17,065 nucleotides of DNA from a virus. Lineage: Duplodnaviria > Heunggongvirae > Uroviricota > Caudoviricetes. The stretch spans positions 1 through 17,065 of IMG/VR virus record IMGVR_UViG_2582580934_000003; one strand, written 5' to 3'. Positions 4,081 to 16,499 of the stretch are shown one piece after another. Positions within the stretch are counted from its first letter, which is position 1. Each line of letters opens with the position of its first letter. The position numbers and the translations under genes were made by a program. The notes under the pieces are model-generated. The model did no database searches and had not been told where the DNA came from. It was given only the letters and a program-made list of their open reading frames with translations.

Positions 4081-4173
4081 ATGAGTCTTTTGAATGAAGT
4101 TCAGAAATTCATTGAAGCCCATCCGGGGTGTACTTCCGGAGACATTGCGGATGCTTTTTACGTGGGGGCTTAA
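4081..4173 (+). CDS. Small ORF (30 aa, MSLLNEVQKFIEAHPGCTSGDIADAFYVGA), coupled to both neighbours; possibly a gene remnant
   Basis: ATG 2 nt after the replication gene stop; its TAA overlaps the methyltransferase ATG (TAATG). Below the ORF-track size cutoff. Confidence 0.3.
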   Translation: MSLLNEVQKFIEAHPGCTSGDIADAFYVGA

Positions 4174-4826
4174 TGAGTAATAAATATTGTCAGGCGCTGG
4201 TGGAGCTGCGGAACAAACCATCCCATGAACTGAAGGAGGTGGGCGATCAGTGGCGCACGCCGGACAGCATTTTCTGGGGAATTAACACCTTGTTTGGCCC
4301 GTTTGTTCTGGATCTGTTCACTGACGGTGATAACGCCAAATGTGCCGCGTATTACACGGCGGAAGACAACGCGCTGGCGCATGACTGGTCAGAACGCCTT
4401 GCGGAGCTTAAAGGTGCTGCCTTTGGCAATCCCCCATACAGTCGCGCCAGTCAGCATGAGGGGCAATACATCACCGGCATGCGTTACATCATGAAACATG
4501 CCAGTGCCATGCGTGATAAGGGCGGGCGCTATGTTTTCCTGATCAAAGCTGCCACCAGCGAAGTGTGGTGGCCGGAAGATGCGGACCATATTGCTTTTAT
4601 TCGCGGGCGTATTGGTTTTGAACTGCCTGCCTGGTTTATCCCGAAAGATGAGAAGCAGGTGCCGACAGGCGCTTTCTTCGCTGGTGCTATTGCTGTTTTT
4701 GACAAGACCTGGAAGGGACCGGCAATCAGCTACATCGGGCGCGATGAACTTGAGGCATGTGGTGAGGCCTTTCTGGCGCAGGTTCGCCAGCAGGCAGAAA
4801 AACTGGTCAGGGAGATGGTGGCATGA
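4173..4826 (+). CDS. Phage Dam-type DNA N6-adenine methyltransferase
   Basis: NPPY motif (AAFGNPPYS); size and position in the nin-like region are typical of lambdoid prophage Dam. Start taken at ATG 4173 (MSNKYCQ) rather than the track start 4128. Confidence 0.8.
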   Translation: MSNKYCQALVELRNKPSHELKEVGDQWRTPDSIFWGINTLFGPFVLDLFTDGDNAKCAAYYTAEDNALAHDWSERLAELKGAAFGNPPYSRASQHEGQYITGMRYIMKHASAMRDKGGRYVFLIKAATSEVWWPEDADHIAFIRGRIGFELPAWFIPKDEKQVPTGAFFAGAIAVFDKTWKGPAISYIGRDELEACGEAFLAQVRQQAEKLVREMVA

Positions 4827-8432: not shown

Positions 8433-8732
8433 AAAAATTCCTTAATACTGATAACTGGGCGCACTATACACACGTTCCTGAAGAAAGCTATAGTTTTTTG
8501 ATGGGGTTGAAGATGGCTGGATGTCTAAAATAAACATTGCTTCATATGTTCAACTATGCGTTAATGATTGCGTCGGTTTGAAGAACAGACGATATACGAA
8601 GTAGTTTACTAAAGCAGTTCTCATTTCAGGTGTTATTCACTTATTCCTTCTTTGAGTCTCTCCAATTAAGTACGAAGTCGTTTCTGTTATACAAGCCATT
8701 TATGCCGAAAGGCTCAAGTTAAGGAATGTAGA

Positions 8733-8948
8733 ATGTCAAATAAAATGACTGGTTTAGTAAAATGGTTTAACGCTGATAAAGGTTTTGGCTTTATTTCTCC
8801 TGTTGATGGTAGTAAAGATGTGTTTGTGCATTTTTCTGCGATTCAGAATGATAATTTTCGAACCTTGTTTGAAGGTCAAAAGGTTACCTTCTCTGTAGAG
8901 AGTGGTGCTAAAGGTCCTGCAGCAGCAAATGTCATAATTACTGATTAA
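8733..8948 (+). CDS. cspB: Cold-shock protein CspB
   Basis: 71 aa [71 protein letters not shown]; long AT-rich 5' UTR. Confidence 0.9.
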
Positions 8949-9230
8949 AATTCATAGTTTGTCTGTATACGATAACGAAGAAGGCTGATGCCTGAGTGGA
9001 GATACAGACAGAGTGGTGAATATTGGATCTCTTTAATAAATAGTAAGGAGGTCCAATACATGAAACAATGGCCAGCATATTTGGCAATAACTTAATCAGG
9101 AAAAGTATGCTAACCATTGTGGTGAAGTGCAGGTTTGCTGCATGAATAGTTTTACAGCAGAAGCTAACTGCTGGCATAGCAAAACAAAGTGCGTAAGTGG
9201 ATGACTCCCACAAAAAGTACCACAATATTA

Positions 9231-11821: not shown

Positions 11822-12181
11822 ATTAATATTAAATCGGATTATTTTTAGCGCTGAATGTGAAATTTAAATAAAAAGGACTCTTCCATGAGTCAAAATCCTT
11901 GAAATCTTAAGGGTAAGATAAAAGGTCATTAGACAGAATGACACGTTTTATTAATAAATAAAGCTATTGTTTCATTCGTGTGTTTTTCTTTACAAAAGTA
12001 ATCCTTGCTATGGTTGGTTAATCATGCGTTAATGGTGTTCTGGTTTGTTACAAAATTATCTGAAGCAGTCATTGTTATAATTTTATTATTTGTACCTCTT
12101 GAGATTTCCTTGTTGGTTTTTCTCTCTGATATTTTTTTTCGGACCATTCTGCCCAAGGGCTAACTTCTTCAAAAGGTAATA

Positions 12182-12397
12182 ATGATGTTTAACAAAATGA
12201 CTGGTTTAGTGAAATGGTTTAACCCTGAAAAAGGTTTTGGTTTCATCACGCCGAAAGATGGTAGCAAAGATGTGTTTGTGCATTTCTCAGCTATTCAGAG
12301 CAACGATTTCAAAACGTTAACTGAGAATCAGGAAGTCGAATTTGGTATTGAGAACGGACCTAAAGGCCCTGCAGCTGTTCATGTAGTGGCACTTTGA
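12182..12397 (+). CDS. cspI: Cold-shock protein CspI
   Basis: 71 aa ...[67 protein letters not shown]; long AT-rich 5' UTR. Confidence 0.9.
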
Positions 12398-12607
12398 GGT
12401 AGAAAATATTACAAACCATATTCACTTTAGATGCCCGTGTTGCCATGGTTCTCAGTATAGAACATCATCTTTTGATGTTTCTGACAGAAATCCTTTCGGG
12501 GCAAAATGTATCTTTTGTAAATCAATGATGATTACATTTGATAATATTTCACAATACTTAAATGTTAGCCATCTGTCGTTAGATTTAAGAAAGTGAAAAT
12601 GAAGGCT

Positions 12608-12852: not shown

Positions 12853-13248
<396 letters not shown>

Positions 13249-13399: not shown

Positions 13400-14206
13400 T
13401 TATGGAGCCGAAATGGTTGTGGTAATAGTCCCCCGAAGCCGTTGCGCTGCTACCTCAAAATAATGATCACTGGTTTCTATACCAATAAATTTTCGCCCTG
13501 CTTTCAGTGCAGCCACACCCGTTGTCCCTGACCCCATAAAAGGATCAAGGACTGTTCCGCCACTATTCACAGTCCTGACCAGTTCCGCCATTAGTTCTTC
13601 TGGTTTTCCGGTCGGGTGCATTTTCTTTGACGGGATAACCGGGAACGTCATGCAGCCGTCGAACGGACCCGAAGGCGATTTACCTAAATGGCCTTTACTG
13701 CCCCAGACGATGTATTCGCACTGATGCCGGAAATACCCGGTATGGGGTGTTCGTGACCCCCTCCCTTTGTTCCACGCAATAATTCCACGCCATGTAAAAC
13801 CGCTGGCCTGAAACGCATCGGTTAAAGCAGGCAGTTGCCGCCAGTCAGTAAATACCAGGGCATAACCGCCCGGCCTGACTGCGCGGTGTGCCTGTGCCAT
13901 CCATAATTGTGTCCAGTAAGCCCACGAACGGGCATCCATGTTTTCACCCGCAAATTCATCAAAGCGGTGAAGGCTCTCGCCGTTCAGATATTTTGCGTGG
14001 CTGCCCTGGTTGGTGCGTCCGGCCTTGTGTGTCGCGCCCGAACTGTAAGGCGGGTCAGTGATTAAGGCATCAATACTTTCTGGCTCAATCAGCGGCAATA
14101 TTTCCAGCGCATTCCCACGACAGAGCGTGGCATTGTCAGTCTGATAAACCTTAGTGTGTTCCGGTGTATGTGCTGGTTGGTGCTGGATTGCGATCCCCAC
14201 GGTCAT
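13400..14206 (-). CDS. DNA methyltransferase, beta-class amino-MTase (N6-adenine or N4-cytosine)
   Basis: 268 aa; motif IV DPPY (LITDPPYSSG) precedes motif I (VLDPFMGSGTTGVAA), the beta-class order. The start may be GTG at the third codon, which has better SD spacing. Confidence 0.85.
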   Translation of the reverse strand: MTVGIAIQHQPAHTPEHTKVYQTDNATLCRGNALEILPLIEPESIDALITDPPYSSGATHKAGRTNQGSHAKYLNGESLHRFDEFAGENMDARSWAYWTQLWMAQAHRAVRPGGYALVFTDWRQLPALTDAFQASGFTWRGIIAWNKGRGSRTPHTGYFRHQCEYIVWGSKGHLGKSPSGPFDGCMTFPVIPSKKMHPTGKPEELMAELVRTVNSGGTVLDPFMGSGTTGVAALKAGRKFIGIETSDHYFEVAAQRLRGTITTTISAP

Positions 14207-14348
14207 AACTCCTCATGTGTGTGGGGTGCTCGATGGCTCTCGTTATCTGGTTAAGTGTTTTGCAGCGCGGACATTTTATTTCAATGTAGTGAAATGAGGC
14301 GCGGGCAAGTAGTTTGTTGCAATTTTTGCATCGTACATTTTGCGTCAT
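14151..14348 (-). CDS. com: Com-like zinc-finger translational regulator (phage Mu Com family)
   Basis: MTQNVRCKNCNKLLARASFHYIEIKCPRCK: CxxC-N16-CxxC close to Mu Com. ATG at 14348 with SD AAGAGGTG. The 3' end overlaps the methyltransferase start by ~55 nt. Confidence 0.7.
   Translation of the reverse strand: MTQNVRCKNCNKLLARASFHYIEIKCPRCKTLNQITRAIEHPTHMRSYDRGDRNPAPTSTYTGTH
14195..14226 (-). promoter_or_regulatory. Stem-loop sequestering the methyltransferase SD and start codon (mom-like translation initiation region)
   Basis: On the mRNA, CCCCAC (plus 14221-14226) pairs with GUGGGG (plus 14195-14200), enclosing GAGGAG and the AUG at 14204-14206. Confidence 0.45.
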
Positions 14349-14385
14349 TTGCGGCACCTCTTGTGTGGTTACTGCTGCCGATATG

Positions 14386-14436
14386 ATAACAAATCGATCG
14401 TTTTTATCGATCGGATTTATTGCATCGATCTGTTAT
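14386..14436. promoter_or_regulatory. Symmetric operator-like element upstream of com: three ATCGATC repeats (each with a GATC) inside a 13-bp imperfect inverted repeat
   Basis: ATCGATC at 14393-14399, 14406-14412, 14424-14430; arms ataacaaatcgat (14386-14398) and atcgatctgttat (14424-14436) match 12/13 as reverse complements. Confidence 0.5.
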
Positions 14437-14486
14437 GCCTATTGCTTATGTATGGTGCCCTCATTTGTGAGGGTAGCAAAAAGAAA

Positions 14487-14518
14487 ACCCGCAGTTTTTA
14501 CGCTGCGGGTTTGTTGTT
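14487..14518. terminator. Bidirectional intrinsic terminator (ACCCGCAG / CUGCGGGU, T-runs on both sides)
   Basis: 8-bp stem 14487-14494 / 14503-14510, TTTGTTGTT downstream on plus and TTTCTTTTTG downstream on minus. Confidence 0.5.
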
Positions 14519-14566
14519 CATGTCTGTGAGATAGGGTGCCGTTTCGACCAACCTTAGCAACCGATT

Positions 14567-14899
14567 GACGGGGGATTACCCCCCCCGTCGCGGTTATCTT
14601 ACTTATTACATAGTAAGAATGCCGCAATTTCCGTGCCAGCAAACCTGAATCGTAACTCGCACGGTGATGTGTGGAGGATCCAGATTATCGCTACCGCAGT
14701 TATGCAAAGTAACAGGGTTTTTAACGGAATTTGCGTCATAACGCTTGTCTCCTGAGAGGAGAGGCGCTAACCTTCTACTTGCGAAGGTAAGAAGTGTTAG
14801 GGCCTCGGTTAAACAGAAATGTTTTCCGGGGCCTTTCCACATCTGGCCTTCGGGTATTCCCTCCGACCATCAGCCGAAAGGCACCCGCGCGTAATCTAT
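14567..14899. other. Highly structured non-coding region between ogr and the com promoter (candidate sRNA and/or prophage attachment-site remnant)
   Basis: Hairpins at 14567-14589 (GACGGGGG / CCCCCGTC), 14597-14618 (TCTTACT / AGTAAGA), 14749-14761 and 14801-14833 (13 bp with a GAAA loop), then a T6 run at 14893-14898. No credible ORF. Confidence 0.4.
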
Positions 14900-14930
14900 C
14901 GCTTTTTTGTTACTCCGGCAATTCTGCCTG

Positions 14931-15191
14931 TTAATTCTGAGATAAAGGCAAACTCATCTGATTGTTTCCCCTGTGTGAAGCTGGCAGATCATGCCACGGG
15001 ATACCTTCTGAAGAGTGAACGCCGGAGGCGTGTTTTGATGTGAATTTATGGAAAGCTTCCAGTGTTGAGAAGCATACGCCGCATTCCAGGTTGTTACACT
15101 GGTAATACTTTTGCCGCACGGTGTTTGAATCATTTTCCGGACGACTGGTGCGGATACGGGCAGATGCGCCACAAAGCGGACAACGGAACAT
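14931..15191 (-). CDS. ogr: Ogr/Delta-family zinc-finger late transcription activator (P2 Ogr-like)
   Basis: MFRCPLCGASARIRTSR...YYQCNNLECGVCF: the CxxC...CxxC signature of Ogr. Strong SD GGGAGG. Directly downstream of a gene D homologue, as in P2. Confidence 0.85.
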   Translation of the reverse strand: MFRCPLCGASARIRTSRPENDSNTVRQKYYQCNNLECGVCFSTLEAFHKFTSKHASGVHSSEGIPWHDLPASHRGNNQMSLPLSQN

Positions 15192-15233: not shown

Positions 15234-16343
15234 TCACTCTGTTTCCGCTATCCATTCCGGGATTTTTGCCTCAAGCTCAAGCTGCGTGGTAAAGCCGCTG
15301 TTATCAATGGTGTGCTCGGCTTTCGCAATAATCCAGTCCTGATTATCAATCTCGCTTTTAAATCCTGTTACCGTGCCATGCATTTCGGGGTAGAGTTCTG
15401 CGCGTCCGCGTGCCAGTGTGATGGAGAATGATGCGGCTCCGCGTTGTAGTTGTTGCCACTTTGCCGCCGCTGCGCGTCTTGCTGCCTGCTCGTTCTGATA
15501 AGTCTTGCGTAACACAAACACATTGCCTTCCGCGCCTTCCATATAATCACCTTCACGGCTGCTGCTTTTCTCTTTTTTCGGTTTTGGCGGTTTGCGGCGT
15601 TTCACGCTGACTTTTTTCTTTTTCCCGTAATTAAGATCAAGCCAGTAAGCGCGTACCCCCGTATACGCCTCGCGGTCAGCAATGCGGAACTGATGGCGAT
15701 CGCCGCTGCTGCGTGTGATGGCGAACGATGGCAACGGCTGGCCCTGTGCGTTCACGCCACCGCCGGGCATGATGAATAACAGATTACCGCTTTTTACCGT
15801 GGTGATTGCGCCCAGCATTTCCGCCATGCGCGTAAGGAAGGACATGTCGCTTTCTTCGGTCTGGTCGGCGTGGTCGATTTCAATATCCATCAGCATTTCG
15901 CTGATTTGCGGTTTCAGGCCGTATCGGTGAGCAATTGCAGACACCACGCGTTCAACGGTCACATCATGCCAGGATACTTCGCGCTTGACGTTAAATTCAT
16001 CCCGAAAATCTGCGCTTCTGGCTGAAATGGTCAGTCTGTCGGGCGGTCCTTCATGAGCAATTTCATCAACAATGTAAGTGCCTTTTTCTGTCAGCGGTTC
16101 TCCTTTCCAGCCAATGAGAACCGTCAGGCGCGCGCCCCGTGGCGGTAGCTGCAACTGACCATCCGCATCATCCAGCGTGATGGTGAGCTGGTCCGCTTCA
16201 AATCCCCGGTTGTCGGTCAGTGACAGGCTCATCAGGCGCTCTGCCACGCCGGACAGCGTTTCCCCCTCCGCGAGAATATCAAAATCCGGCATTTTCACGG
16301 GGTCTGTGCCCTGACTGAGCAATTGTATGGTGGTGTCGGTCAT
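15234..16343 (-). CDS. P2 gpD-like tail protein (phage late control gene D family)
   Basis: 369 aa from ATG 16343 (SD AGGGAGGG); size and position immediately upstream of ogr match P2 D. Has an unusual Lys-rich linker (KKKKVSVKRRKPPKPKKEK). Confidence 0.7.
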   Translation of the reverse strand: MTDTTIQLLSQGTDPVKMPDFDILAEGETLSGVAERLMSLSLTDNRGFEADQLTITLDDADGQLQLPPRGARLTVLIGWKGEPLTEKGTYIVDEIAHEGPPDRLTISARSADFRDEFNVKREVSWHDVTVERVVSAIAHRYGLKPQISEMLMDIEIDHADQTEESDMSFLTRMAEMLGAITTVKSGNLLFIMPGGGVNAQGQPLPSFAITRSSGDRHQFRIADREAYTGVRAYWLDLNYGKKKKVSVKRRKPPKPKKEKSSSREGDYMEGAEGNVFVLRKTYQNEQAARRAAAAKWQQLQRGAASFSITLARGRAELYPEMHGTVTGFKSEIDNQDWIIAKAEHTIDNSGFTTQLELEAKIPEWIAETE

Positions 16344-16499
16344 CTTTCCCTCCCTGTGCAGCATGGTCGCATGTGCGTGCGGAGGGGGTTACTGCTTTTT
16401 GTTGTCGCCGTGGCGGGAGAACGGCGCGGGGGTGAGATTACGCGCGTGGTGGGTGATGATTGTTGCCGAATCATTTAACGGATACAAGGGGCTGAAGCT

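Follow-up and report, generated by a model that had tools for sequence, protein, structure and literature searches.

A putative Dam-sensitive OxyR operator ahead of a com-linked DNA methyltransferase cassette in a P2-like prophage

Just upstream of a com gene in the stretch of viral DNA analyzed here (17,065 nt, hereafter the window), three copies of the heptamer ATCGATC, each harboring a GATC, are crowded into 38 bp. Mu mom and agn43 are both under the control of Dam and OxyR (PMC2909390). Do the repeats of the window constitute an operator of this type in front of a different enzyme, or do they serve another regulator, the enzyme itself, or no regulatory purpose at all? A preliminary description of this DNA had proposed the Mu mom-type explanation, with the heptamer as the repeated unit of a symmetric 13-bp operator, while also entertaining autoregulation by the downstream methyltransferase.

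The com operon and its surroundings

On the minus strand, the gene order from high to low coordinates is gpD, ogr, hok, com, and a methyltransferase gene, followed by attR and raiA, which corresponds to the right end of a P2-like prophage. The block comprises the following features.

16364..15234, minus strand: gpD
15191..14931, minus strand: Ogr/Delta zinc-finger gene
14739..14599, minus strand: hok/gef toxin gene
14485..14512, minus strand: intrinsic terminator of hok/gef, the upstream boundary of the com transcription unit
14151..14348, minus strand: com, encoding a 65-aa zinc-ribbon homolog of the translational activator (ATG at 14348; PF10122, E 9.5e-12)
14227..14241, minus strand: putative Com-binding mRNA block GAGAGCCAUCGAGCA, matching Mu GAAUGCCUGCGAGCA, directly 5′ of the hairpin
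14195..14226, minus strand: translation-initiation hairpin CCCCAC...GUGGGG, enclosing the methyltransferase Shine-Dalgarno sequence GAGGAG (14214..14209) and AUG (14206)
13400..14206, minus strand: beta-class N6-adenine/N4-cytosine DNA methyltransferase, 268 aa (PF01555, E 2e-33)
12907-13248, strand opposite to the com and methyltransferase genes: raiA

The com and methyltransferase genes overlap by 56 nt. In E. coli OkiPb01715, a P2-like prophage sits next to raiA and has the same block at its right end, and in Chuche, an isolated P2-like phage, it lies between ogr/hok and the integrase gene. The com upstream region is present in 173/5426 complete E. coli genomes (about 3%). None of the records examined (e.g., L001) carries an annotation for the operator, promoter, Com target, or hairpin described here, and Rfam and tRNA scans of the window gave no match at the com locus, returning only two cspA thermoregulator matches elsewhere.

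These two cspA-type leaders, at 8572-9011 and 12027-12443, are located left of a junction at about 12602, where a lambdoid late region gives way to the raiA upstream region. The junction was matched in 0/5426 complete E. coli genomes; in those compared, bamD precedes raiA. A second prophage might have been inserted between bamD and raiA, the region might have been rearranged, or the DNA might come from another species or strain. The lambdoid late region also contains the Dam-type gene pointed out in the preliminary description, which we recovered as a PF05869 family member at 4128-4826. Gating of the com cassette by this prophage Dam, as had been suggested, is conceivable but unnecessary because E. 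coli hosts have a Dam of their own.

Between hok and com lies a small hotspot for insertions, as seen in the window, in L096/L097 (1147-1443), and in L094/L095 (2547-2933); some strains have a TM2-domain/zinc-ribbon gene here, others a divergent 128-aa gene with no Pfam match. A short hairpin (CCCTCACAAATGAGGG, window 14453-14478) directly upstream of the operator accompanies the com cassette in loci with hok or the TM2 gene as neighbor (window, L003, L090, L096, and L097). It is absent from L094/L095, whose similarity to the window starts only at the operator.

Mu Com is an RNA-binding translational activator. The window Com, assigned to the phrog "gpCom control of modification," is 44% identical to it in our alignment, with the four cysteines and the KLL/IEIKCPRCK motifs conserved. 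The mRNA target is recognizable as well: GAGAGCCAUCGAGCA-CCCCAC (14241..14221) corresponds to Mu GAAUGCCUGCGAGCA-UCCCAC, and the CCCCAC/GUGGGG hairpin (3′ arm 14200..14195; MFE -17.5 kcal/mol, z -2.5) has a Mu counterpart with the arms CCCAC...GUGGG. Across six com operons with different second genes, the pattern GCC...GAGC..CCCAC...GUGGG, with the conserved block GCCnnnGAGCnnCCCAC, is invariant or nearly so. In Mu, Com activates mom translation through the same arrangement of block and hairpin (PMC3299994). The RefSeq name of the com product (WP_001353016.1, L001) is "Com family DNA-binding transcriptional regulator." The conserved mRNA target would fit an RNA-binding translational activator, not this DNA-binding label.

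The second gene encodes an enzyme in which DPPY precedes FxGxG, the motif order of the beta class. Among enzymes of solved structure, it is closest to DpnA and CcrM (E about 1e-20); NCBIfam and PHROGs (phrog_67) provide generic names only. We considered and rejected homology to the nonspecific methylases Hia5/Hin1523, as BLASTP against the com-linked methyltransferase of H. influenzae (L052) returned only a 46-aa match at the AdoMet motif (E 0.005), the motif order being the opposite one. M.EcoGIX, M.EcoGI, and M.EcoGII were likewise rejected as the identity of the enzyme, EcoGIX being plasmid-borne. In the literature, we found no paper tying a P2-like com-linked methyltransferase to a methylation motif.

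GATC sites, a predicted promoter, and a match to the OxyR consensus

The three heptamers were located exactly as previously described, on the plus strand at 14393-14399, 14406-14412, and 14424-14430 (38 bp end to end), as was their position ahead of com. The inverted repeat reported around them was recovered, too, with 12 of 13 positions complementary.

14427..14430: GATC-1, a Dam target at predicted positions -54..-51; starts 82 nt ahead of the com ATG
14409..14412: GATC-2, within the -35-like hexamer at predicted positions -36..-33; starts 64 nt ahead of the com ATG
14396..14399: GATC-3, within the promoter spacer at predicted positions -23..-20; starts 51 nt ahead of the com ATG
14386-14398 and 14424-14436: arms of the inverted repeat, 13 nt each (ATAACAnATCGAT/ATCGATnTGTTAT)
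14383..14410, minus strand: predicted sigma-70 promoter Pcom, with a -35-like TCGATA (14410..14405), a 16-nt spacer, TG (14391..14390), and a -10 TATCAT (14388..14383); inferred transcription start site (TSS) at about 14376
14397..14442, minus strand: predicted 46-bp OxyR operator, reading ATAGGCATAACAGATCGATGCAATAAATCCGATCGATAAAAACGAT, with two overlapping 37-bp registers

On the coding strand, the start-to-start spacing of the GATCs is 18 and 13 bp. How unusual is such a cluster? GATC, for which the preliminary description had proposed a test of enrichment, shows no overall excess in the 17-kb window (58 found versus 61 expected). In Markov simulations, three GATCs within 38 bp arose somewhere in 17 kb in 23% of cases, so that the GATC cluster alone is weak evidence; only 0.3% of the simulations contained two separate ATCGATC copies within 38 bp, and 0.07% reproduced the 18/13 spacing exactly. 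The real support comes from Mu mom and agn43, where the spacing recurs and the sequence can be aligned.

Pcom is the sole promoter-like site within 14200-14950. Its -35-like TCGATA contains GATC-2, and the predicted promoter as a whole overlaps both GATC-2 and GATC-3. The extended -10, which is also overlapped by the right arm of the inverted repeat, is kept as tTGyTATCAT in all P2-like variants, GATC-less ones included, and in the cassettes of Salmonella and Citrobacter its place, likewise 11 nt from GATC, is taken by TATAAT or TATACT. A terminator-like hairpin at 14394-14414 was dismissed as a by-product of the palindromic CGATCG repeats; it lies upstream of the predicted TSS.

Given that the cassette sits just downstream of ogr in a P2-like prophage, and that a DNA-protecting methylase could be of use late in infection, one might suspect a late promoter under P2 Ogr control at which the repeats have no regulatory role. 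We regard this as highly improbable. No Ogr-type TGT-N12-ACA dyad with ≤1 mismatch is present within 14370-14530 or within 150 nt upstream of com, whereas such a site was found, much like a positive control, at 16403-16420 in the tail-sheath promoter region. In addition, the same cassette occurs in lambdoid and other contexts. The cassette appears to operate without input from a phage activator, which would leave Dam and OxyR as the only recognizable transcriptional control.

We scanned for the OxyR tetramer consensus, which is degenerate, in the palindromic form ATAGnTnnnAnCTAT-N7-ATAGnTnnnAnCTAT, the half-site ATAGnTnnnAnCTAT reportedly going back to Toledano et al. in 1994. Among some 34,000 window positions on both strands, only 14397-14433 and 14406-14442 reached 15/20 matches, as compared to 13/20 and 14/20 for the validated sites of Mu mom and agn43, respectively, in the same scan. 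These registers place the operator at 14442..14397, six bases past the earlier upper limit of 14436. In both of them, GATCs overlap ATAG/CTAT-type recognition elements, and in the Mu-equivalent register, GATC-2 and GATC-3, 13 bp apart, flank the half-site [G]ATCGATAAAAACGAT[C] (8/10 match). Note that the OxyR consensus has been printed as ATAGxTxxxAxCATAT (PMC2909390). We consider it likely that the three repeats are a Dam-methylation-sensitive OxyR operator of the com operon, combined with translation of the methyltransferase that is unlocked by Com.

Could Dam act here without OxyR? With GATC-2 and GATC-3 inside the predicted core promoter, their methylation might alter the affinity of RNA polymerase, or SeqA might bind the cluster when it is hemimethylated after replication, and its three sites span 31 bp, that is, about three helical turns, which suits SeqA. 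Such control has precedents in IS10 pIN and the dnaA promoter and would couple expression to replication. Nevertheless, we judge this explanation unlikely, as it leaves conserved non-GATC positions (ATAG at -30 and the CGATCG...CGATCGAT half-site) unexplained, and these match the OxyR consensus better than validated sites do. Moreover, the Mu block works 33 bp further upstream, outside the core promoter.

Com loci of other phages and prophages

For a wider view of the predicted Dam-sensitive OxyR operator, we gathered Com homologs by protein similarity alone, using one genome per species (80 loci), IMG/VR (80 loci), and exact-protein look-ups, and inspected 110-200 nt upstream of com. The loci with GATC arrangements fall into several groups, listed here with the second gene of the operon.

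P2-like, 26 IMG/VR loci: N6/N4 methyltransferase; three GATCs at -82/-64/-51 in 22 loci
Salmonella L088/L089: N6/N4 methyltransferase, 67% identical to that of the window; GATC pair 13 bp apart, at -64/-51
Lambdoid-end L085-L087 and L124-L146: Mom; GATC pair 13 bp apart, at -64/-51
L005 and L147-L152: C5-cytosine methyltransferase (PF00145); GATC pair 13 bp apart
Mu-like L007, L010, and L165: Mom; three GATCs, spaced 18-19/13
D108-like L154-L166: Mom; GATC pair 18 bp apart

Every enterobacterial group surveyed has GATC pairs or triples with 13- or 18-bp spacing, the pattern being lost only in a few P2-like variants (L004, L091-L093, and L121-L123). The 13/18-bp arrangement was seen in none of the com loci of Neisseria, Haemophilus, Acinetobacter, Methylophaga, Marinomonas, Magnetococcales, and other non-enteric bacteria.

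The E. coli loci L094 and L095 have a different upstream gene and 7-8 operator substitutions, one of which turns site 3 into GATCAAT, yet retain the three GATCs along with their spacing. What is conserved is thus GATC at fixed spacing, rather than ATCGATC or the 13-bp repeat. Here the preliminary description needs revision: relatives with three sites show GATCAAT or GATCGGT, and the inverted repeat that it had called a symmetric operator is lineage specific, being conserved neither in L094/L095 nor in Mu. Its Mu mom-type GATC/OxyR reading appears to hold once the 7-mer is given up as the unit, favored as it is by the spacing, the alignment, the consensus score, and the enterobacterial conservation.

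Might the inverted repeat ATAACAnATCGAT/ATCGATnTGTTAT instead be the operator of another dimeric regulator, encoded by phage or host, with the GATCs being incidental? The ATAACA/TGTTAT arms indeed remain in variants collapsed to a single palindrome, whether or not the GATC is mutated (L004, L091, and L121-L123). TGTTAT, however, belongs to the extended -10 and is conserved on that account, and the left arm reads AACACA in L094/L095 and is absent from L092/L093, Mu, and the two-GATC loci L088, L005, and L085. Where this arm differs or is missing (L094/L095, Mu, L088, L005, and L085), the GATCs and their spacing persist. No candidate regulator was found, and we consider a role for one quite unlikely.

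The same loci speak to autoregulation, in which ATCGAT(C) or GATC would be the target of the cassette methyltransferase itself, its methylation feeding back on the promoter. DpnA, the best solved relative of the enzyme, is a GATC adenine methylase, which makes a positive feedback via GATC conceivable. But GATC is already methylated by the host Dam, and L094/L095 and L112, with a methyltransferase of the same family, have a GATCAAT site in which ATCGAT(C) is lost and GATC is kept. Furthermore, the same operator precedes operons for Mom, a C5-cytosine methyltransferase, and the 67%-identical, different N6/N4 methyltransferase, and so is not tied to the specificity of one enzyme. Autoregulation through the enzyme's own ATCGAT(C) target, as put forward in the preliminary description, is thus disfavored, and we hold any such feedback to be very unlikely.

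Within the lineage, GATC columns were not significantly more conserved than others (1/11 versus 7/35 variable columns, p=0.66), there being too little variation for power in this test, the seed of which left out the TGCTATCAT haplotypes and L094/L095. Individual P2-like loci nonetheless differ at the sites. In L004, recombination between GATCGAT repeats has deleted the 31 bp from site 1 to site 3, so that a single GATC is left in a perfect palindrome. Site 2 is mutated in L102, and L091, L121-L123, and L092/L093 have zero GATC while keeping the extended -10. Since natural variants without one, most, or all sites exist, the operator is dispensable. Together, L004, L102, L091, L121-L123, and L092/L093 represent a ready-made allelic series of P2-like cassette operators.

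To judge from these comparisons, the GATC operator, com, and the hairpin seem to behave as a portable regulatory module across P2-like, lambdoid, and Mu-like elements. The module precedes at least four DNA-modifying enzymes, namely Mom, two N6/N4 methyltransferase subtypes, and a C5-cytosine methyltransferase.

Proposed regulation and comparison with known Dam/OxyR systems

If the repeats do form a Dam-sensitive OxyR operator, regulation might proceed as follows. With the three GATCs unmethylated, or possibly hemimethylated, an OxyR tetramer would bind and occlude the promoter. Methylation of the GATCs by host Dam would exclude OxyR, permitting synthesis of the com-methyltransferase mRNA. Com would then bind the GAGAGCCAUCGAGCA block and open the CCCCAC/GUGGGG hairpin, which hides the ribosome-binding site and AUG of the methyltransferase gene, such that the enzyme can be translated. 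The sequence, the GATC spacing, the consensus score, the conservation, the promoter-like elements, and the hairpin are observed, whereas the binding of OxyR, the direction of its effect, the position of the TSS, and the action of Com are inferred. One point against this scheme is that E. coli is dam+, while repression calls for unmethylated sites. An OxyR site at about -66..-21 could in principle also activate rather than repress, like OxyR(AB) at gtr.

That Dam and OxyR control mom is known already, as are methylases linked to com in Mu-like prophages and the phase variation of agn43 and gtr through Dam and OxyR. A full-text search of the literature found no description of a P2-like com-methyltransferase promoter or of its operator-on-promoter arrangement. 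Since the promoter would be activator independent in a resident prophage, unlike in Mu where C is required, an agn43-like switch becomes conceivable. We tentatively suggest, as a doubtful but possible extension by analogy, that the prophage methyltransferase cassette, with a constitutive promoter that needs no activator, could be switched ON and OFF heritably by Dam and OxyR. If true, a prophage DNA methyltransferase would be phase variable without repeat-tract slippage, and part of the lysogen population would have an additional methylation pattern, by which phage or host DNA might be pre-protected from restriction or gene expression altered.

Whether mom-type operators phase-vary was posed as an open question (PMC2909390). 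Because Dam and OxyR are the only recognizable control, the P2-like locus would make a simple natural test case for mom-type phase variation, and any epigenetic heterogeneity arising from the operator would be widespread, considering its presence in about 3% of complete E. coli genomes. The Dam/OxyR operator of Mu mom, treated as a peculiarity of one phage, is suggested here to be portable among three unrelated enterobacterial prophage types. Even if the site were merely an ordinary repressor site, the annotation of operator, promoter, Com target, and hairpin would be useful.

At the right end of phage Mu (AF083977, L002), the sequence upstream of com reads ...ATATAGAAAACGAC GATC GAATCAATTAAATC GATC GGTAATACA GATC GATTATG..., as compared to ...CAATAGGCATAACA GATC GATGCAATAAATCC GATC GATAAAAAC GATC GATTTGTTATCAT... 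on the minus strand of the window. The GATCs of Mu mom region I (L002 1160/1178/1191), to which OxyR (MomR) binds in their unmethylated state, have an 18/13 spacing identical to that of the window (14430/14412/14399), and the two blocks align column for column, including ATAG 30 nt upstream of GATC-2. The operons are alike, too: com is the first gene, the Com-target block is conserved together with the hairpin that covers where the second gene starts, and that gene begins before com has ended.

In contrast, a segment of about 33 bp, which in Mu contains the C-activator site and the weak T6-spacer promoter, is missing from the window in the alignment. Accordingly, neither a site for C (Mor/C family) nor a weak promoter with a 19-bp T6 spacer was found there, the T6/TAAGAT segment being gone. 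From GATC-3 to the -10 (TAAGAT) there are 44 nt in Mu, holding the C site and the poor promoter, but only 11 nt in the window. This puts the operator at about -66..-21 in the window versus about -99..-54 in Mu, a shift of 33 bp or three helical turns relative to the inferred TSS (for Mu, footprint and TSS positions inferred from sequence and reviews, with the TSS taken 7 nt past the -10 in both cases). The second gene is of the N6_N4_Mtase family (PF01555) in the window and Mom (PF25680) in Mu; tblastn with Mu Mom detected Mom in other loci only, not in the window. The carriers differ as well, a P2-like prophage for the window cassette and a transposable phage for Mu. A 9-mer, TAACCACAC, located just 5′ of the com Shine-Dalgarno sequence in the window (14363-14371, minus strand), is also present in Mu (L002 1208-1216), where it overlaps the Pmom -35 region as positioned from the Mu -10 hexamer; the window copy may be a remnant left behind when the C-dependent promoter was deleted.

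Located in the cryptic prophage CP4-44, agn43 (flu, K-12) has three GATCs spaced 19/13 in one OxyR site, versus 18/13 in the window. Its core CGATCGTTTATATCGATCG is nearly identical to window 14395-14413 (plus strand), and the core ATCGATCGTTTATATCGATCG differs at one position from 14393-14413. Between agn43 CGATCGTTTaTATCGATCGATAAGcTA (L083 234-262) and the com operator of Citrobacter (L005, about 2452-2480), 2/27 positions differ. The shared sequence exceeds the consensus, and the agn43 and com operators may be of common origin. The agn43 operator overlaps the core promoter region, covering the -10, TSS, and leader (about -12..+37); that of the window is predicted to overlap it, too, but over the -35 and spacer. 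The cargo is an autotransporter in agn43 and a methylase in the window, and phase variation is proven for agn43.

Work on P22 gtr has shown that a single OxyR dimer half-site accommodates a pair of GATCs 13 bp apart, and that Dam methylation abolishes OxyR binding (PMC2909390). As predicted for the window, the 13-bp GATC pair of the P22/Salmonella gtr operons flanks an OxyR half-site, and repression is exerted through the pair closer to the promoter, which overlaps the -35 region (PMC2909390). The architecture is otherwise different: the four GATCs of gtr come in two pairs, with three half-sites, allowing alternative activating and repressing OxyR positions, whereas the window has three GATCs in one contiguous 46-bp block.

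Finally, the Mu-like prophages with Hin1523, Hia5, and Nma1821 (PMC3299994) resemble the window in having a methyltransferase in the place of mom behind com. Enzymes of the Hin1523/Hia5 type, however, belong to a different permutation class, their com loci are without the GATC operator, and they are found in Mu-like, not P2-like, elements. By comparison with all these systems, the window cassette would derive from the Mu arrangement but be independent of C; as cargo located between ogr/hok and attR, it would drive an ordinary beta-class methyltransferase in place of Mom.
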